A stretch of DNA of 64,000 nt, from positions 12,338,001 through 12,402,000 of the forward strand of contig CM102286.1 in assembly GCA_046563655.1 (NCBI GenBank), given 5' to 3'. The position numbers were made by a program, and so were the translations under genes. Positions 2,749-63,601 of this stretch are shown here, piece by piece. The DNA comes from Yuukianura sp. NJ FZ-2021. Its lineage: Eukaryota. How positions within the stretch are numbered: the stretch's first letter is position 1; every line of letters starts with the position of its first letter. The notes beneath the pieces are model-generated. The model did not search any database and had not been told where the DNA came from. It was given only the letters and a program-made list of their open reading frames with translations.

Positions 2749-3582
2749 GTTATCGTAGGCAGGCTCAGCCAATCTGTGTTAAAAGAATTCAATTTAATTG
2801 AAATTTTAATTGAAAGTGAAATACACAGTTAAATAGTAAGTACCTAGCTAAGGCTACTTTACTTGCTTTTGTACAAGTAATTCACTTTTAGATACCTCGA
2901 TTTCTTTAGCAATACTTATCAGCGCCGAATTGTTGCAAAGGTGAGGCAAGGGTTATCCACTGATCGTCGGTTGTCATTGAAAACTCCCTCCGCAAATCAC
3001 CTAAGTAATCGTCAAACTTTAGTTCGATTCTAAATTAACTAATTCCGATTTTTGGAATCAATCAGCTGTTATCAGAAATCAGCTGTTGAAAAACTCCCTA
3101 TTTTCATAATACTATTTCTCCCGCCTACAAAAACATAAAATAATCGTGCACTGTAAACATAAAATAATAATTCCAGTAGTAATCCAAATTCCCAGGGGGC
3201 GGCAAAAATGCCTTAGCGACCAAAACCGATTCTTTATTTGTTTACAATTTCACTCACAGTGACGTCACTCCGAGTGAAAATACAGGTTCATCCGAGTTTT
3301 TAAGCTATTTTTAAGTTTGCGGCGAAAGTATTGAGACTAAAATGATGAAAATTTTGAACAACACTGTAAATGAGTGAACTCGGAGTCAAAGAAATCCCAT
3401 AGCAACTCAGTTTTGAAAAAACAATTTTAAACGACCGTACCTATAAGTATTCTATTTACCTTGCCAAATTCCAGTAAACCTCAATCAGTAGGCAAAGCAC
3501 AACAAGTCTGCTGGACACTTCTAGACTTCTTGTAGGAAAGCCATGATTTATTCTCCGTGTTCATCTAAAAATGGTGATTGGA

Positions 3583-5363
3583 CTAGACTAATTGTTCGGA
3601 CGCTGACTGAGCAAATTCTAAAAGTTTCCATGCTGCTCTTGGGTTGAGCTCTGTTCTGTCTCGACACAATACCCAAACGTTGTTCACTCGAAGGACTTTC
3701 TCAGGGTCACCTTGCGTCACTTTTCCTGTCTTGTCTTTGACATATTGTACCTATAAATCAAGCAGCGTTAAAAACATTAATACGTTTAACTGAAGACATT
3801 ACTTTAGAATCAAAGCAAAGTTTAAACTCACTTGCTGCGAGGTAAACGTTACAACTAAGACAGGACCCTGCTCCAGCACTCTGCCCATGGCTAAATCTAC
3901 GTGGGAGATGTCCAGTATCCTACTGTGTATCGTCATGCCCAGCTCCTTGGCCTGTTTAATCGGCTGGGCAATTATTGCAAAGGCCTTTTCGTAACACCAG
4001 TCTTCCAGAATCTGCAATCCACGCATAAGTGCTTAAAACTTTCCAAGTTGAATTCCATCCAGTGTTATTTCCGTGTATATTTGAAACTAACCTCAAGATC
4101 TGCTCTGCAACACGCTTCTAGAATATTTGGAATTATATCTTGCTCAACATCTTTCAGAAATTTTTCTTTGTCAAAGCTTGGGTCAAGTTGTATAATTTCC
4201 GTAAGTGCTTCAGATAATTCAGTACGCTGAAAAAGACCACCCATGATATCTGATACCTACAATACACAAATACAAAGGTGTAACATTGAGATTGACCTGA
4301 TGTGCGGATACCCGGGCCAGTTGATTGTTGTGATTCTGATTTACCTTTTCAGTAAGGAGTCTCGATGCTCGAACGACCGGATTCTCGCTCTCATCATATT
4401 TGATCTTCCAATCTAACACTTTGTTGACATAAGGGTTATTATCTTTAAACTTTTCCCAACTTTGGTAAAACCTGAAACCAAGTTAGAAAAAAAAACAATT
4501 CAAGCGAAACTAGAAGACTTTAACAAAACATAGGTCAAGGAAAATCAGTTGCTAACCTTGAATCTTTATGTAGCTCCAATCCACGCGCTTCTTCGTTTGG
4601 TTGAATAACTACTTCAGGTCCAACGACCTCAACACGTTTTCTTAGGGTCACCGGAGGTTTGTATATCCTGCTATCTGAGTTAGCATCTACTATTTCATCT
4701 CGTACAACAGCCGCTGCACCGGAAACAGCACGGAATGGTGTCGTGCTAGCAAGCTTACTACCATGTTCAGCTACTGTGTCAGCAACATTTTGAGCTTGTT
4801 TCCCTAGTTGCTCGCCAACAGCACCTAGGAAGCACAACAATTTTGTAAACTTATTGAATATTTCAGTGGTATTGGAGTAACTGAGAAAGATTGTAACCTA
4901 AAACTGACCTGCCTTCTTAGCAAATTCTGTTTGACTGGCTGTTTCCGCAACTTGTTGTAGTTTCTCCTTCACGGCGTCCATTTGTTCCTTAAATACTTCC
5001 GATCCTTTCGAAGCTTCGGATTCAACAATTTGAAACTTCCGTCGGGCCTGTTTTAAAGCGTCTGATTCTTCTAGTTTCTGTGCCTCCTCTCGAAACTTGG
5101 CAATATTATCTTTCATTTCTTTGTTTTTTGAGAACTCGTTTCGGATGTTGTCAATCAGTTTGGAAACAAATCCTGGCTGCTTTGAATACTGATGTCTAGA
5201 AATGTATTCGCCATGCTAAAAAAATGAATGAAAAGAAAAGTTGCATTGTAATTTTATTAGTAGGGTCACCTACGTTAGGCGGTCTAATGTTTTTTAAGAA
5301 GAAAACGGAAGTATTTACCCTCGCAATATTTAGTTGTATAGCTTTACTGAATAGTCGATGCAT
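3583..5363 (-). CDS. TIMM44: Mitochondrial import inner membrane translocase subunit TIM44, multi-exon
   Basis: MHRLFSKAIQLNIAR presequence-like exon, then KEMKDNIAKFREEAQKLEESDALKQARRKF, LELHKDSR, YDESENPVVRASRLLTEK, ILEDWCYE and GPVLVVTFTSQQ. TAG at 3583-3585. Confidence 0.93.
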
Positions 5364-51848: not shown

Positions 51849-55020
<3,172 letters not shown>

Positions 55021-56441
55021 GATAAGAGATAGAGAGTTATACAGTAAAGGCATCGTACGGCAGAGGCATGTTGCGTTGTGGGTTAAAGCCGTTAAACTGC
55101 CGAGTATTCAACTTAATTATATTTCTAGTTGTTTTTTTTATACATGGTTTGATAATAATTAGCCAATTATTAATCATTAAATAAAACTATAGATATGGGG
55201 ACAAAAATAGTAAGCAGAGTTCCAATTAAAATTCAGAAAAAGTAAGAAATGTTACACGAGGTCGTAGTTATCGGCCATGAAACTAAGCAATTCGAATCGG
55301 AAGCAATAGGCGTACGCTGAAGAAGCCTGCAGTCTGAAGGTGACGCTAACCGCGACTGATTTCGCAAATGAGGACCATAAAGCGTACTTCAACCAATGTT
55401 TGTTGTGTTTGTTTTCTGCAACCATTCATTAGCCGATATGTAAATAAGACCTCTTCAAGGGTCTGGCTAAAGGTCGGATCTGCGACGCCTTTGATTTCGT
55501 TCAAATATTTACTAGTAGCTATGAATTTACTGTTAGTAAGTTATCGTTATAAAACGATATAGTAGCTATATTGCTATTCCATTATATGTTTTATCATATT
55601 GTGTTGTTAGTATTTGTCATGCTAGAGATGTGGTTTTTGGAATGCCATGGAATAAAACGTTCAGAGTGCGAGGAATCCGGCGTCACGTTGTGCCCCGCTC
55701 AAATCAGATCACATGAATCTGGGATTCCTGCTTTTCGCCAGACCCCCTAGCCGTTCCTAAATTATTTTAACGGATGGCGTAATGTTTAACATGCGTTAAC
55801 TCGTTTCGCCTCTTACGACCATAGTTCGAAGCTACCATACGCGGCTACACCTGAATGGCAACTTTATGCAGCCAGTTTAGTTTAACTGAAAAGTAACCAC
55901 CAAACCACCCAATGCGCATGAATAGTGTTAAGCTGTGTGGTAACAATAAGCTACGCTAAACATTACTCCAACCATATTTTCATCCGAATTCCTCATTGTT
56001 GGTCGTCATCAGCTGTTTTTTTTTAAATTTAGCATTGTTGTTTTATTACATACAATTTGAAGTTCATAAGTTCATTTGGCTTGTGTGAATCATCTTCATC
56101 AATCACGGACATAATGAATACCATGGACTAATACTGTACGAGTAAACTGAAACTGACATCACAATTCTAATTGGAAGTGGTGAGCAGACGACACAAATTG
56201 TAGATTGGCCTCAAGTTGAGGCCGTCAACAATTTGTGAGCCTACATCATAACTTTCTTCTTTTCGTTCTATCTTAAAACTCGTAAAAATCTTAGAATGCG
56301 GTCCGCGGGCGGACTGACATGTGAATTAATGAACCCTTAATCAATATTATACTTAAGACACCTGATTGAAATTTACCCTAGGATAATCGACTTGTACTAT
56401 ATTCATGACTTATGACTATTTCATTTAATTTGATCTAGATC

Positions 56442-59400
56442 ATGTCTTTCTCATGTTCAACCAGGCTGTTGAATTGTAAACACTTCTTCGATCAAGGCAG
56501 ATGGAGAGCATTATCGACCTACAGGACTTTCCTCTCTTCACGGTCAACGACAAATAACCCAGTATTCAAGGCTGCAGATCTAAAGATTAAGAATGGGCAG
56601 GTACGTTGTTCAACCATTTTGCCGTACAGTTTTTTTTTAAATATTGAATACTTAAGAGTGTATATGACCAATTTGAGCCAAGTGACCAGTTTATCACTAT
56701 TTAACCTTACCCCGCCGGACTAATTAGTAAAATCATAGCTTAGTGTGTCAATTTTATCAAACAGAAGCAGCGAACGGGCAGTTTAGAAACGGATCGGGAT
56801 CGTACCATTCCGAATCACAAATCGTTATCGTCTCGATAATCCTTGTCAATCGCCAGCTTATAGTAACGCCTACACAATTCATTGCTCAAGTTTATCAGCC
56901 AACGTAATTCATTCAGTACTGGTAAATTCGTAGAAAATGAAACGCAAGGGAAGGACACACAGGCGTAGGTCAAGTAAAGTCAAAGTCACAGAACTCTCTC
57001 AGTCTCGTCATCCAATACCGCTCCATTCAACATCGCCAATAATTCGTATTCTTCAGTACTTGCACAGTCAATCCAGCTACTTCAAAACCGTTAACGTGCA
57101 ACCTGCTTTATTCCATGTACAAGACTCAAAAAATTCAGAGGATGTAGTCTATCGGGGAATTTCCGCAATGAAGAGGATTGGATCTGGCACGGTTCTCTTA
57201 ACCCTCCCGGAGTCACTACTTATTAAACCAGTTGACGTACTGCGACATCTCAAACAGAGTTCATTTGCGTCATCAGATGTTTTGGCCACCTTGCCAATTG
57301 CGTCGTTACTCGCCTTATTCCTGCTCCGTGAAATCAAATTGGGGAAGGAGTCGGAATTTCAACACTACATGGATACGCTCCCGGACAGTTTCTTGGAAAA
57401 CCCAATTTATTTGCCAGAAGAGGAGAAGAATATTCTTCCCGCAGCCTTACAAAAGTATCTCAGTGATCACTTTCAGGATATTCAGAAGCAATTTCAAAAC
57501 CTACGGACGAATTTTGATTGGTTTGACTTCGAAGAGTTCCAGTTTGCCTTCCTAGCTGTGAGTACTCGAACAGTCTTTTACGAACCAGAAGGAGGCCAGC
57601 GACAAATGGCACTAGCTCCATTCCTTGACCTCTTCAATCATTCTCCCATACCTAACAGTGAAACGTCATTTGACAAAGTGACTCGGAGTTACGTCATCAA
57701 GTCGTCTAACCGTATCAATCGCTGGGAGCAAGTTTTTGTCAGCTACGGTCCTCACTCTAATCATGCTTTGTGGCTCGACTATGGTTTTATTCCCACAGAA
57801 CTCAACCCATTCAATATCATTCCGCTGGAATTCAATGCCTTAGTTCAACAGAATAAGTGGCTGGACCAGGTCATGAACGACAAGCGAAAAATGAATGTCG
57901 TCAAACAGTACTCGTTGACTGAGAATTTAGCTCTGCATCAGCACGAACTTTCTTACAACTTATGCTTGCTCATTCACATTGCCCTCTGGAATCCAGCGCA
58001 GACGACTACTTTTGATTTCGAGATTGACTGTGCCAGTGCTCAGTTTAAGGAAATGGCTTTAACCCTCACCGAAAACGAACTTTCTAGTTACAAACAGTCC
58101 TTGGAGAAGCTGAAAGCGTCGCCCGCTACCCCCTCAGTCTCTACCACTACTGATCTTCTGAATAGTTCAATTATTTTTATGCAATCCCTGATCGAATGCT
58201 TAAAGTGAGCAGTGAGTGTTTGAAGCAAGTATTTTGGGGAGCTGAAGTTTAACCGCTTGTTATTTTATTGTTTTATGACGCAGTCCGGATTTTTTTTTAC
58301 TAGTGTTTACTGTTCATGTGTTCCTTTTAGAGTAATCTGTTTCACCCCCAGAGATCCTGTTTTCACCCGGGAGTCAGCAGTCTCGCTCGAGAGGGAATCA
58401 AACTTCCAAGTTCCGCTCAAGAAGTTTCTTCTAGTCACATGCTGAAAGTAATGTTGACCTACATTTGGCCTAAAGTAAGTCCATTTTGTAAAACTATGAC
58501 CATACCGCGTTGATTGGCTAACGTTAAAATGTTCTTTGATTCCTTTCTATTTTTGCTTTTAAGGACAACTTAGAGATTCGTCAACGTGTAATGGTGGCCT
58601 TAGGACTACTCGTTTCGGCCAAGGTTTTAAACGTCTGCGTTCCTGTGATGTTCAAGCTTGCGGTTGATAATTTAGCGCCTACGGCTGCTGCCGGATTAAC
58701 TGACACCGTCTCAACGGTAACCACGTTTTCGCTGGCTATTCTCGTTGGTTGTAAGTACTAATCAGTCATCATTTAGGTTATATCACAGTAAAAATCAAAT
58801 TGACATTCTATCATGTTCTTTCTTTAGATGGATTGGCACGCCTGGGATCATCTGGATTCAACGAGCTAAGAAACGCTGTTTTTGCCAAAGTTGCTCAGAG
58901 AAGTATCCGGAAAATTTCTCGGAACGTGTTTCTACATCTCCACAATTTAGATTTATCATTTCACCTGAGCCGTCAAACTGGAGCATTGTCTAAGGTTAAA
59001 CCTCATTTGTTTATACTTTGAATATCTTTGAAGATATAACTGAAGAGAAAACATGATCAATTATCTTTTGAGCAGACAATCGATCGTGGGTCTCGCGGAA
59101 TTAATTTTGTGCTTACAGCGATGGTGTTCAATATCGTACCAACATTATTTGAATTGGGTCTTGTCTCTGCAGTTTTGGTAAGATAAATCAAGCAATGTTA
59201 AACATGGGTTGCCCATTCTCAAGCGTAATGCATGACTATAAAATTTGTTTGTTTAGGGATATTCTTTTGGTGCAAACTTCGCCCTGGTTGCTGTCGGTTG
59301 CGTTTCAACGTATGCTGCTTATACGCTTACTATGACTCAGTGGAGAACGAAGTTCAGGGTGGCGATGAATAAGGCGGATAATGAATCCGGGAATCGTGCC

Positions 59401-61219
59401 GTAGACTCTTTGCTGAACTATGAAACAGTGAAGTACTTCAATAATGAGCAATACGAGGCAGACAGATACGACGAGAGTCTTCAGAAGTACGAGAAAGCTT
59501 CGTTATTGACCAGTTCATCATTAGCGGCTTTGAATTTTGGACAAAATGCTATTTTTAGCGTAGCTCTAAGTGGAATTATGATCATGGCGGCTCAGGAGAT
59601 TGCTAAAGGTGAGCTGACATGAACTGGAGCGGGAGTGTGATGCGAGCTGGGATGTTTGATTTTATGTCCTTGTTCAGGCAACATGTTTTTTTTTGATTTT
59701 TCATTGCAGGCAACATGTCTGTGGGAGACTTAGTCATGGTCAATGGACTCTTGTTTCAACTGTCTGTACCATTGAATTTTTTGGGATCTGTCTATCGAGA
59801 AATTCGCCAAGCAATGATTGATATGACCACAATGTTTTCTCTTTTATCCGTTCCAACTAAAGTGCGGGTAAGATTCTTGTTATAACCTTTCGAGACGCGA
59901 TTTCTATCTTAAATTTAGAATTTGTGACTATTAACTACGAAATCATCTATGTATAGTCTAACGACGCTGCCCCGTTGCTCAACCTTGGCGGTAATCAAAA
60001 GGCATCAATAGAATTCCGGGACGTATATTTTGGATACAGTGCAAACGCGCCAATTCTCAACGGACTGTCCTTTGTAATTGAACCTGGCAAAAAAGTTGCA
60101 ATTGTTGGAGGTTCTGGGTCTGGGTAAGGTGCCAACGCAACCAAAATACGATAAGTAAAGTTAGTACCGTATTTTCTCGCGTATAAGACACTCTCACTTA
60201 TCGAACCCAGAAACTCTCGAAAGTTCCTCCACGAAGGACCGTGCCACAATTTGAATAGCCAGGAACCACAACCATACCAAAAATGCTGGATTTGATTAGT
60301 TACCATTAGATTAAAACCGTTTCAAGTAGGGTTTAAACGTTTGCCAACAATTCCTACAAATGAACAAAGGTCAGTTTTCACCGAAAAAAAAATTCTTTTG
60401 CCTTCCAAAACTATTCGACGCGTCATACGTGAGAAAATACGGTATGTCTATTAAATAGGGTTTATTAATATTTTCAGAAAGTCTACGATAATTCGACTAT
60501 TGTATCGCTTTTTTGACCCTCAACAAGGAAGCGTACATATTGGGGGTGAAAATATTTCACGAGTAGACCTTGACTCCTTACGCAGATCAATTGCAGTTGT
60601 GCCACAGGTTAGCCCTTGAATTTTCAATAAGAATCCGAATTTTCTTCATCCTGTCTTGTGAATTCATTCCAGGACTCCGTACTATTTCACGAAAGTATAC
60701 TTTACAACCTTCAATATGGAAATCTTCAAGCGCCGATCGACGACGTCTACAAAGCTGCCGAACTGGCTGACCTCCATCTAGCAATTAAAAGATGGCCAAA
60801 AGGTTACGATACACCAGTGGGAGAACGGGGACTCAAATTGTCAGGGGGAGAAAAACAGAGAGTGGCTATCGCTCGTGCTGTATTAAAGAAAACTCCAATT
60901 CTGGTCTTCGACGAAGCTACATCATCGCTCGACTCCATCACAGAGAATGTAAAGTATTTCTACGCAAATGTTTCCCAAATAGTATCTAACTATACAAAAA
61001 TCAATAGTGTCTATTCTATTGCAGAACATTTTGGTGGCATTAAGGAAAGCATCCCTGGACAGGACGTCAATTTGGATCGCCCATCGTCTTTCAACAGTTA
61101 TGGACGCCGATGAAATTCTAGTGATAGAAGGAGGAAGAGTCGTAGACAAAGGGACACACAGTGAACTAATCAACAGAAAATCTTCCCTATATCATTCGCT
61201 TTGGAACGCTCAGACGTAG
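56442..61219 (+). CDS. ABCB7: Mitochondrial ABC transporter ABCB7/Atm1, multi-exon; intron 1 (56601-58330) hosts SETD4
   Basis: Exon 1 (56442-56600) is an Arg/Ser-rich presequence. Exon 2 starts at 58331 (RSCFHPG...MLTYIWPK). Then [38 protein letters not shown] (Walker A), [20 protein letters not shown] and IAHRLST. TAG ends at 61219. Confidence 0.93.
56937..58208 (+). CDS. SETD4: SET domain-containing protein 4-like lysine methyltransferase, intronless, 423 aa
   Basis: Single ORF. The N-terminus [11 protein letters not shown] resembles SETD4. SET motifs [10 protein letters not shown]...[22 protein letters not shown] and [21 protein letters not shown] are present. Confidence 0.85.
   Translation: MKRKGRTHRRRSSKVKVTELSQSRHPIPLHSTSPIIRILQYLHSQSSYFKTVNVQPALFHVQDSKNSEDVVYRGISAMKRIGSGTVLLTLPESLLIKPVDVLRHLKQSSFASSDVLATLPIASLLALFLLREIKLGKESEFQHYMDTLPDSFLENPIYLPEEEKNILPAALQKYLSDHFQDIQKQFQNLRTNFDWFDFEEFQFAFLAVSTRTVFYEPEGGQRQMALAPFLDLFNHSPIPNSETSFDKVTRSYVIKSSNRINRWEQVFVSYGPHSNHALWLDYGFIPTELNPFNIIPLEFNALVQQNKWLDQVMNDKRKMNVVKQYSLTENLALHQHELSYNLCLLIHIALWNPAQTTTFDFEIDCASAQFKEMALTLTENELSSYKQSLEKLKASPATPSVSTTTDLLNSSIIFMQSLIECLK
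60167..60442. mobile_element. Tc2/pogo-like MITE (276 bp, TA TSD) in the ABCB7 intron that splits Walker A
   Basis: TA|CCGTATTTTCTCGCGTATAAGAC ... GTCATACGTGAGAAAATACGG|TA; shares the CCGTATTTTC terminus with the element at 44680. Confidence 0.82.
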
Positions 61220-61786
61220 ATCGGCCTGGTAAAACAATAAATCTAAATATATTCGCTGTTATTTAGTATATTGTTGGATTTTCAGCAGGTTTTTGAAGTA
61301 CTAAACTTTTATTTCGATTCGATATTTGAATTTTAAGTAAGATCTTCCGTTTAAAAGTCTTGGAAAACGGCCAGCAGAGGAATGGTTAGGGACATAAAGT
61401 ACTTATCGTTAGTACGTCTGCAAGGGAAAGGAAATCGGTGAACGTATTGCTTTTGATTGTGGTGTGGTGTGTACAAATATACTTATCCGAATCGGATCAT
61501 CCGATGTTACATTTCAATGGATGGTGCTAGAGTATTGCGAATTTCTTCGGAAACTGTGGGTACAGACTGGCCGAGCGTGTTTACTTCAACCGAAAATTCA
61601 GCGAATTCAGTGGTATAGTCACACCCCTTGTGTTTTTGTTTTCATATTTAAAAGTAACAAGTGTTTTGTTATTTTTTTTTTACAGAGTTTTCACGCCGTA
61701 TTCCGTATTCACAAGGTGGATATTTAGATTTTTGAAGCGTTCGAGCGTTTAGCTGAATACCATATAGGTATCTCCTTAGATCCAAG

Positions 61787-63601
61787 ATGTCGGAGCTGTC
61801 TAACGTCGACATTGGTCGATACAGTAGACAGATGCTACTTCCTGAATTCGGAATCAAAGGTTACCTTGAAGAAATATTTAGAACCGTTTTCGTTTTATAC
61901 TAATTTTGAAACGTTTATGACTCGTCACGACTGTTTCTGAATTAGGACAAAGAGCGCTGAAGAACGGTTCTGCCCTCATAGTAGGTATGGGGGGACTTGG
62001 TTGTCCAGCGGCAATGTACATCGTTTCATCCGGAATCGGTAATTTATTATATATTTTTTCGACTTTATGGATTCATTTTTTTTCGTGTTTGATTTCAGGG
62101 AGAGTAGGACTGGTTGACTACGACATTGTAGAAATAAACAATTTACATCGGCAAGTTCTTCACAACGAGAAGTCACTGAACATTCCAAAAGTAGAATCCG
62201 CCAAAAACTTTCTCAATTCGTAAGTTGCCGATAAGCTGTCAATGTCAACAGTTATATGAATAATTATGTATCAACTTTATTCTGTGATCTTCCAGGCTAA
62301 ATTCGTCTGTGATCGTGCATTGCTTCAACGAACCTTTCACATCTCAAAATGCCCTCGAAATCGTCCAAAACTTTGATGTAATTTTAGACTGCACTGATAA
62401 TCCCGCGACACGCTATCTACTGAACGACGCCTGTGTTCTTAGCAACAAACCCTTGATTTCCGGAAGGTTAAACTCACTTAAGTATAACTTAAGTAATCGA
62501 TGTCATAATTTTATGTAATCCTTTCTGCTTTCTATTAGTGCACTCCGTTTCGAAGGTCAACTGACAACATACAACTGTAATGCTGGTCCATGCTATAGAT
62601 GCCTTTTTCCGAAACCACCGCCAATTGAATTTGTAACAAATTGTTCAGACGGTGGTGTATTAGGACCAAGTAAGATTTTTACTTTGAAGAAATCATGTAT
62701 GTCAATCCCTAATGAAATTCCCTGTAACTAGTACCAGGAATCATCGGAACTCTACAGGCGCTGGAGTGTATCAAGCTAATCGCTGGAATTGGTCCATCCT
62801 ATGTTGGCAAATTGTTGCTATTTGATGGAATGTCGGGGAAGTTCACTGAAATTAAACTGCGAGGGAAACAATCCAGCTGCGCCGTCTGTGGAACTTCACC
62901 TACAATATCAGCTCTTTCAGAAGATTATGCATTTGTATGCGGAGGTGGATACGATGATAAAGTAATAAGCATGTTCAAGTTGCTTCAAGAACAATTAGCA
63001 AGCATCTTTCGGCTATAACAAAGATGTTGAATCAAGGCTTCGCAGGCAGAATAATGTGATCTTGCTTTGGTTTCAGGACAAAGGCATAACGTTGCTTGAC
63101 GAGAGTGAAAGGCTCACACCTTTAGAATACAAAATCATGTCAGAAGCGCCACATGTACTTATTGATGTACGAGATCACCAAGGTTTTGAATTCTGTTCCT
63201 TACCAACAACAACGCTCAACTTACCCTACGACGACCTTGAATCGAGTGGCATTCAGAAACTTAAGGCTCATCTTCGAAATGAAAGTTACGACAAAAGCGT
63301 TCCTGGTAAGTTTTATTTTAATAATTTTTTTGAGTTGTTTAGTGTGTGTACAAATCTTATCGTCTAAATTTTTCACTACTACGATCTACATGTATAACAA
63401 TGACAATTGACAAATGAGTTGTTTTGTAAATTATGCATTATAACAGTTATCGTCGTCTGTCGAAGAGGGAATGATTCACAGCGAGCTGTACAGTTACTCA
63501 AAGAAAAGTTTCCAGCAGAATTCAATTTAAAATTTAAGGATATCAAGGGCGGTCTCCACGGTTGGACTAAGGAAGTAGATCCTAATTTTCCAATGTACTA
63601 A
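61787..63601 (+). CDS. MOCS3: Adenylyltransferase and sulfurtransferase MOCS3/Uba4 (E1-like plus rhodanese), multi-exon
   Basis: [76 protein letters not shown]...NCSDGGVLG, rhodanese loop CRRGNDSQ and C-terminal DPNFPMY*. The start codon is somewhat uncertain. Confidence 0.93.

Follow-up and report, generated by a model that had tools for sequence, protein, structure and literature searches.

The SETD4-ABCB7 locus

We examined a window of 64,000 nucleotides (nt) from the springtail Yuukianura sp. NJ FZ-2021 (positions 12,338,001 to 12,402,000 of the forward strand of contig CM102286.1, assembly GCA_046563655.1), in which a SETD4-type methyltransferase gene uninterrupted by introns lies on the same strand as ABCB7, between the two segments that probably form the first and second coding exons of that gene. 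A sequence-only reading of this DNA had proposed that SETD4 is nested in the first ABCB7 intron, that it reached this position by retroposition, and that alternative splicing might join it in frame to the ABCB7 mitochondrial presequence. The sequence features from which these proposals were drawn are all present: the exon 1 candidate ends at 56600, ABCB7 rejoins at 58331, a 1272-bp open reading frame (ORF) lies between them, and an AG occupies 56932-56933. The features of the locus, in window coordinates, are as follows.

55368-55535, + strand: second and less likely candidate for ABCB7 exon 1 (56 codons, ending in phase 0; donor score 5.7)
56442-56600, + strand: best candidate for ABCB7 exon 1 (ATG, 53 open codons, phase 0, CAG/GTACGT donor)
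56601-58330, + strand: ABCB7 intron 1 (1730 nt)
56621-56652, + strand: left copy of an imperfect 32-nt direct repeat, containing T9
56667-56936, + strand: ATG-free stretch of 270 nt, possible SETD4 leader or promoter region
56771-57036, + strand: cover by a contig from an RNA library (266 nt, depth 2)
56909-56917, + strand: initiator-like (Inr-like) TCATTCAGT
56931-56933, + strand: in-frame TAG closing the frame 5' of the SETD4 ATG; its AG (56932-56933) is the acceptor proposed for the fusion
56931-56939, + strand: TAG AAA ATG
56937-58208, + strand: SETD4-type single-exon gene (1272 nt including the stop, 423 amino acids [aa], TGA at 58206-58208)
58209-58330, + strand: spacer from the SETD4 stop to ABCB7 exon 2 (122 nt)
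58280-58311, + strand: right copy of the imperfect 32-nt direct repeat, containing T9
58331-58474, + strand: ABCB7 exon 2 (phase 0; the acceptor, ...TTTTAG, ends at 58330)
58564-58750, 58828-58994, 59076-59177 and 59257-59608, + strand: ABCB7 exons 3-6
59710-59867, 59957-60123, 60478-60607, 60673-60948 and 61025-61219, + strand: ABCB7 exons 7-11
61236-61241, + strand: AATAAA, likely the ABCB7 poly(A) signal, 17 nt past the ABCB7 stop

The ORF at 56937-58208 is the longest open frame in the window (424 codons from stop to stop, against 225 for the runner-up); the earlier description of it as the only long intronless ORF is correct for these 64 kb and reaches no further. Pfam identified a SET domain (PF00856) at residues 73-271, with an expectation value (E) of 5.6e-7 and 30.4 bits for a cutoff of 22.4. 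Ten of the 27 SETD4 homologue matches carried names, eight being insect "SET domain-containing protein 4" entries (E 1e-23 to 3e-7, ~30% identity) and two fungal hypothetical proteins, and the nearest matches were unnamed sequences (P0002 at 47% identity and P0003 at 38%). Among proteins of solved structure, the ORF matched Rubisco LSMT and SETD3 in sequence (E 1e-6 to 3e-5). In an alignment of 10 SETD4 sequences, A225-H235 (APFLDL.NH), Y282, and F284 were invariant and S269-G271 (SYG) was nearly so; we take the NH-S and the tyrosine-containing SYG/YGF motifs to be the cofactor and catalytic residues. At E up to 0.1, Pfam detected no Rubisco LSMT substrate-binding domain in the ORF, and its C-terminal 130 residues could be aligned with relatives. 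Judged by these similarities, the ORF is a SETD4-type SET-domain lysine methyltransferase gene. SETD4 has been linked to cell quiescence in Artemia, an association that is already published.

The surrounding gene comprises 11 coding exons. Exons 2 to 11 (58331-61219), modeled under the guidance of Folsomia candida ABCB7, encode 625 aa with ABC_membrane and ABC_tran domains and are 73.8% identical to the F. candida protein over 622 aa, 73.6% to that of Allacma fusca, and 72.1% to that of Orchesella dallaii; no insect sequence in the set exceeds 70%. By homology, the host gene is ABCB7, the mitochondrial iron-sulfur (Fe-S) exporter. Besides intron 1, it has eight introns of 65 to 101 nt and one of 354 nt.

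The most likely ABCB7 exon 1, going by its donor and by the composition of the peptide it would encode, is 56442-56600. Using splice matrices that are crude, having been built from 9 verified introns, its donor at 56600 scores 6.1, and the nine verified donors score 2.6 to 8.0 in leave-one-out tests. The first 40 residues contain 6 arginines plus lysines, 1 aspartate plus glutamate, and 12 serines plus threonines, a composition that resembles annotated ABCB7 N-termini. Compared with 45 ABCB7 N-termini, the exon 1 candidates scored no better than shuffled sequences (z-scores of -0.8 for 56442-56600 and -1.1 for 55368-55535, within a range of about -1.1 to 1.4 over all candidates). An absence of sequence similarity is usual for presequences. 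A small N-terminus alignment had hinted at a W-[RSK]-[SAT] motif, which was dropped because only 6 of the 45 N-termini have it.

Evidence that SETD4 lies within ABCB7 intron 1

An in-frame TAG (58328-58330) stands immediately 5' of ABCB7 exon 2, and the peptide CFHPG is encoded at 58358-58372, ahead of the first in-frame ATG of this exon, which occurs only at 58439. Exon 2 thus requires an upstream coding exon that is spliced onto 58331. All 10 aligned arthropod ABCB7 N-termini share an identical CFHPG, the ABCB7 models of Folsomia and Orchesella have 59 to 108 residues ahead of it, and residues 1-51 of the Folsomia protein find no counterpart in exons 2-11. The acceptor at 58331 scores 5.1, the highest of the 108 AGs in 56650-58331. 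Scanning 58209-58330 for starts, we found a single one, at 58275, whose donor sits at the exon 2 boundary, so that an intron could not be accommodated ahead of the CFHPG codons. The required coding exon would thus sit upstream of SETD4 or, formally, within it. Because the 122-nt spacer cannot supply this exon, nesting would hold independently of which exon 1 candidate is correct; with the alternative at 55368-55535, which lies directly 3' of an XPD-like gene, SETD4 would still fall inside an ABCB7 intron. The stop codon before 58331, the position of CFHPG upstream of the first ATG, and the exclusion of the spacer together bear out the proposal of same-strand nesting, and the conclusion that SETD4 lies wholly inside one ABCB7 intron is supported by the gene structure.

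Conservation of the arrangement in springtails

A metagenome scan with the SETD4 alignment recovered four further loci, as follows.

L001: SETD4 in one exon, its stop at 1472-1474; same-strand ABCB7 exon 2 after 56 nt
L002: SETD4 in one exon, at 2864-4120; same-strand ABCB7 exon 2 after 118 nt
L003: too short for the order of SETD4 and ABCB7
L004: SETD4 at 512-1749, interrupted by a GT-AG intron of 62 nt; same-strand ABCB7 exon 2 after 154 nt

All three of the metagenome loci that have downstream DNA (L001, L002, and L004) show ABCB7 exon 2 behind SETD4 in the same orientation. At all loci the spacing is narrow, with 123 to 336 nt before SETD4 and 56 to 154 nt after it. L002 also repeats the layout of the window upstream, where a basic, ATG-initiated candidate exon of 62 codons ending in CAG/GTACGT lies 238 nt 5' of SETD4. 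In L003 (1030-1361), SETD4 homology breaks at CAG/GTCACG after about residue 243 of the nearest relative, and the remaining 320 nt contain no exon; this break is probably an intron in a springtail-like SETD4.

One of the 120 ABCB7 matches listed has a SET domain, namely, the 1,094-aa Allacma fusca model P0030. SETD4 residues 5-422 are matched by residues 2-457 of this model (E 3e-62), in which ABCB7 begins at residue 459, at the CFHPG exon. The model contains a full SETD4 and no ABCB7 presequence. It probably consists of adjacent genes that were merged by the predictor owing to the nested layout and, read in this way, would be a fifth instance of the arrangement. An exhaustive SETD4 search, in which the best 150 of 2436 matches were all at most 650 aa, is silent on fusions; the representatives listed did not include the Allacma model.

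An ABCB7 tree with 25 rows paired the window with L001 as sisters (Shimodaira-Hasegawa-like approximate likelihood ratio test [SH-aLRT] support of 99) inside a springtail clade of six rows (SH-aLRT 100), the other members of which were Allacma, Orchesella, Folsomia, and L002. The arrangement is thus found in the Allacma lineage, in the lineage of the window and L001, and in the Folsomia-like L002, with SETD4 protein identities of 32 to 48% among the lineages that have it. The sequence-only reading had suggested looking for the nesting in relatives; the same gene order appears in L001, L002, L004, and the Allacma model, and this supports an old SETD4-ABCB7 arrangement that is conserved across the sampled springtails. 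Comparison of the noncoding DNA around SETD4 among the window, L001, L002, and L004 gave no matches at E < 0.1, the best being between the exon 1 donor regions of the window and L002 (E 0.17). A search with the 48-aa exon 2 peptide for longer proteins returned five candidates, none of them significant.

Expression of the nested pair

RNA evidence came from one metatranscriptome run, with 5% of sampled words, and from a single contig, with which missing cover over the ABCB7 exons is uninformative. This contig is colinear with the genome over 56771-57036 and begins 166 nt 5' of the SETD4 ATG. It differs from the window at 56936 (A to G, one base before the SETD4 ATG) and at 56965 (G to A, in codon 10), from which it follows that a near-identical strain of the animal exists in another sample. 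An Inr-like element had been suggested as a start for SETD4 itself; the motif is indeed present at 56909-56917, but TCAGT is common (144 occurrences in the window on both strands) and the RNA contig begins upstream of it. The 270 nt 5' of SETD4 would be free of ATGs with a probability of ~0.015 at the ATG frequency of the window, and the start codon has the context AAAATG. This context and the ATG-free leader fit a transcription start within intron 1.

At the other end of the gene, the 122-nt spacer is free of AATAAA, of ATTAAA, and of all 12 variant poly(A) hexamers searched for. None of these hexamers occurs in the 56-nt spacer of L001 either, and the 118-nt spacer of L002 lacks AATAAA and ATTAAA and has two TTTAAA variants only. 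L004 has two AATAAA hexamers directly after SETD4. In the window, the first AATAAA past the SETD4 stop is the one at 61236, after the ABCB7 stop. A noncanonical signal may serve the SETD4 mRNA; alternatively, the end of this mRNA may lie in exon 2 or past it. Separately, a donor-like AAA/GTGAGC (58202-58210, score 6.2, in the top 4% of GTs) straddles the last SETD4 codon; splicing from it to 58331 would remove 126 nt and extend SETD4 in an exon 2 frame other than that of ABCB7. Donors after the SETD4 stop were considered as a sign of splicing into exon 2 and rejected, as they are not above expectation.

We consider it reasonably probable that this springtail locus is a conserved host-nested pair, in which a single-exon SETD4 with its own start occupies ABCB7 intron 1 and no fusion is made. 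Under this explanation, exon 1 (56442-56600), with its presequence-like peptide, would be spliced to 58331 over the 1730-nt intron, and ABCB7 mRNA would form by removal of SETD4 as part of that intron. SETD4 would be transcribed from a start within the ATG-free 270 nt and translated from its own canonical ATG into an ordinary protein without mitochondrial targeting, and the supposed in-frame acceptor would be nothing more than the stop, TAG, at which the upstream frame closes. The pair would be old and not the product of recent retroposition, and SETD4 would more likely have lost its introns in place.

Several points weigh against this explanation. No read or cDNA spans 56600-58331 or marks the SETD4 transcript start, and the RNA contig may be pre-mRNA or DNA carry-over. 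Exon 1 lacks confirmation by homology and has a second candidate at 55368-55535; in L004, ABCB7 exon 1 (203-388) is a candidate only. In L001, an ATG overlapping the SETD4 stop (A-TG-A) is in frame with ABCB7 exon 2 and its frame runs through the polypyrimidine tract (1471-1674), so that nesting would not be forced there. The ATG-free leader occurs in the window only and not in L001, L002, or L004, and a fully independent nested gene is hard to square with spacers that, in the window, L001, and L002, lack a canonical poly(A) signal. Metagenome contigs can be misassembled, and L004 falls outside the springtail clade on a branch of 2.07 with unsure placement. Finally, two verified acceptors score -3.8 and -5.4 (leave-one-out), below the site at 56934 that the fusion would use, and score alone therefore cannot exclude that site.

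Alternative explanations

The strongest alternative, which we regard as unlikely, is that one primary transcript gives two products without any fusion, starting either from the ABCB7 promoter or by read-through from a SETD4 start. Splicing of intron 1 would yield ABCB7 mRNA and retention of the segment would yield SETD4 mRNA, which would end in or beyond exon 2 or carry exons 2-11 as a 3' untranslated region and use the poly(A) site of ABCB7. The relative amounts of the two proteins would then depend on how intron 1 is processed. The missing canonical signal before exon 2, the same shortage in the L001 and L002 spacers, the very tight spacing at every locus, and the Allacma model that bridges the two genes are in keeping with it, as are the donor-like site 126 nt before exon 2 and the RNA contig that begins 166 nt 5' of the ATG. 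However, the exon 1 ATG opens a 94-codon read-through frame (56439-56723) that would precede SETD4 on such a transcript and hinder its translation, and L004 has two AATAAA hexamers right after SETD4. Donors scoring at least 6 make up 4% of GTs, so that one among about ten is unremarkable, and L001 has none; the Allacma fusion is possibly a gene-prediction artifact, and many arthropod genes use noncanonical poly(A) signals. A further step, to which we give rather little credence, would be a conserved processing switch through which each transcript becomes either ABCB7 mRNA or a SETD4 mRNA borrowing the ABCB7 exons and poly(A) site. If true, a single splicing decision would reciprocally couple an Fe-S exporter and a quiescence-linked methyltransferase, and this coupling would have persisted over hundreds of millions of years.

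It is improbable, in our estimate, that SETD4 entered a once-short ABCB7 intron as a copy, by retroposition or another insertion, an origin that would be compatible with any of the models of expression. An intronless ORF amid genes rich in short introns is what such an event would leave. In addition, an imperfect 32-nt direct repeat (72% identity) brackets the SETD4 segment near both ends of intron 1, and deleting one copy together with the intervening DNA leaves an intron of 71 nt, typical for ABCB7. This repeat could be the vestige of a target duplication or could be due to chance. It is seeded by the two T9 runs, its score was matched in 12 of 500 shuffles, and neither L002 nor L004 has a similar flanking repeat. 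No poly(A) or A-rich tract lies 3' of the ORF, the arrangement is common to all sampled springtail branches (SETD4 identities of 32 to 48%), and the L004 SETD4, in the same position before ABCB7, has an intron, as the L003 gene may also have. The retroposition proposed by the sequence-only reading is not supported by these comparisons, which argue against a recent retrocopy. Given the shared order and the L004 intron, it is more likely that SETD4 lost its introns in place in the springtail lineage of the window.

A tandem, non-nested organization, in which ABCB7 transcription begins 3' of SETD4 and the protein starts at the methionine at 58439 or receives its beginning through a trans-spliced leader, is very unlikely. 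The in-frame ATG that overlaps the SETD4 stop in L001 would suit it, as would an exon 1 that has yet to be confirmed at the sequence level. Under it, however, the conserved CFHPG segment would stay untranslated even though its frame is open from the acceptor, and the stop codon directly 5' of 58331, the first rank of that acceptor in the interval, and the residues that the Folsomia and Orchesella models place before CFHPG all argue for an upstream coding exon. Trans-splicing is not known to us in springtails, no search for it having been made.

The fusion itself, in which exon 1 (56442-56600) would alternatively be spliced to 56934 to give an in-frame ABCB7 presequence-SETD4 protein, a mitochondria-directed methyltransferase, is highly improbable. 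Exon 1 ends in phase 0, TAG/AAA ATG keeps the frame open, the resulting intron of 333 nt is within ABCB7's own range, and in the nearest relative, L001, an in-frame TAG likewise lies four codons ahead of the SETD4 ATG. Nevertheless, the proposed AG is merely part of the TAG that closes the upstream frame, and such a site is at the level of chance: an in-frame NAG at or after the last upstream in-frame stop precedes 568 of 976 ATGs on the + strand of the window and 541 of 983 on the - strand (55 to 58%), and TAG is the nearest upstream in-frame stop for 21 to 23% of these ATGs. The acceptor at 56934, with a purine-rich stretch ahead of it, scores -1.5 and ranks 37th of the 108 AGs that 58331 leads. 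Conservation of the AG, which had been put forward as a check, extends to the window and L001, in both of which the in-frame NAG is the bounding TAG, but not to the other two of the four loci; the fusion could not arise in L002, which has TGA and no AG, or in L004, which has TAA and 25 codons free of an in-frame NAG. In relatives, SETD4 opens with a basic N-terminus of the same M-G-R-T-R-R type, and where the inspected homologues extend further at this end, as in the acidic extension of P0174, the added residues do not resemble a presequence. The 56600-56934 junction that the sequence-only reading had predicted was absent from the sole RNA-library contig, which runs unspliced across 56933/56934 (266 nt, depth 2, no joints) and, as possible pre-mRNA or DNA, is weak evidence. 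On these grounds the fusion is not supported; a mitochondria-directed SETD4 would be striking if true, and the evidence here does not favor it.

Neighboring genes

Both genes that flank the locus are on the + strand, with an XPD-like helicase (domains DEAD_2, HBB, and Helicase_C_2) upstream and a MOCS3-like gene with ThiF and Rhodanese domains downstream. XPD is an Fe-S protein. Three successive + strand genes therefore touch Fe-S or sulfur metabolism, namely, the XPD-like gene (51888-55000), ABCB7 (56442-61219), and the MOCS3-like gene (61921-63601). No upstream counterpart of the XPD-like neighbor was found in L002 or L004. An Rfam scan of 55000-59000 returned no families.

Comparison with known systems

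Intronic nested genes are common. When both genes share a strand, the cell must transcribe through and splice around a complete gene, and nested pairs that have been kept for a long time are natural tests of whether nesting is tolerated or used. The SETD4-ABCB7 pair is unusually tight, appears in all sampled springtails, and unites Fe-S export with a lysine methyltransferase tied to quiescence; our literature search found no paper naming the two genes as a pair. There is also a practical side, in that gene predictors may merge SETD4 with ABCB7, as in Allacma, or overlook the ABCB7 presequence exon.

Each partner resembles its family in most respects. SETD4 shares with the LSMT-like class (SETD3, SETD4, and SETD6) the SET domain, its motifs, a basic N-terminal G-R-T-x-R-R-R, and a similar length (423 aa). 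It differs from insect SETD4 in that the springtail protein is only ~30% identical and lacks a Pfam match to the LSMT substrate-binding domain, and its methyltransferase activity is predicted. ABCB7 is like other ABCB7/Atm1 half-transporters in its 74% identity to springtail ABCB7, its two ABC domains, and its predicted N-terminal extension before CFHPG; unlike in those, another gene here separates the putative presequence exon from the remaining exons.

As nested genes, the two can be set beside pairs cataloged in mouse and human. Passages of a 2024 mammalian survey (PMC11694760) report that nested genes prefer the largest, often the first, intron of the host and that there is a slight bias toward opposite strands, the two orientations being broadly similar in number. 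The sequence-only reading had held that most nested genes are antisense to their host; going by those passages (PMC11694760), the direction of the bias is right, but same-strand pairs are nearly as common. A complete gene within a host intron is the shared feature of the cataloged pairs, as far as those passages describe them (PMC11694760), and of SETD4-ABCB7. The springtail pair differs in that SETD4 fills about three-quarters of a very small intron (1272 of 1730 nt, leaving 336 nt before the gene and 122 nt after it), in that no canonical poly(A) signal precedes the next ABCB7 exon, and in being conserved over springtails.

For the idea that one locus chooses between two products, the closest analogue is CPNE1/RBM12, two unrelated genes that, as described in PMC2568002, share a promoter, the 5'-most exons, and the 5' untranslated region. 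There, according to the same account (PMC2568002), two unrelated proteins arise from one locus and strand through a choice of splicing and polyadenylation. ABCB7 departs from that scheme, as outlined in this source, in that its exon 1 would hold the start codon and the presequence, and the sharing of this exon with SETD4 is hypothetical.

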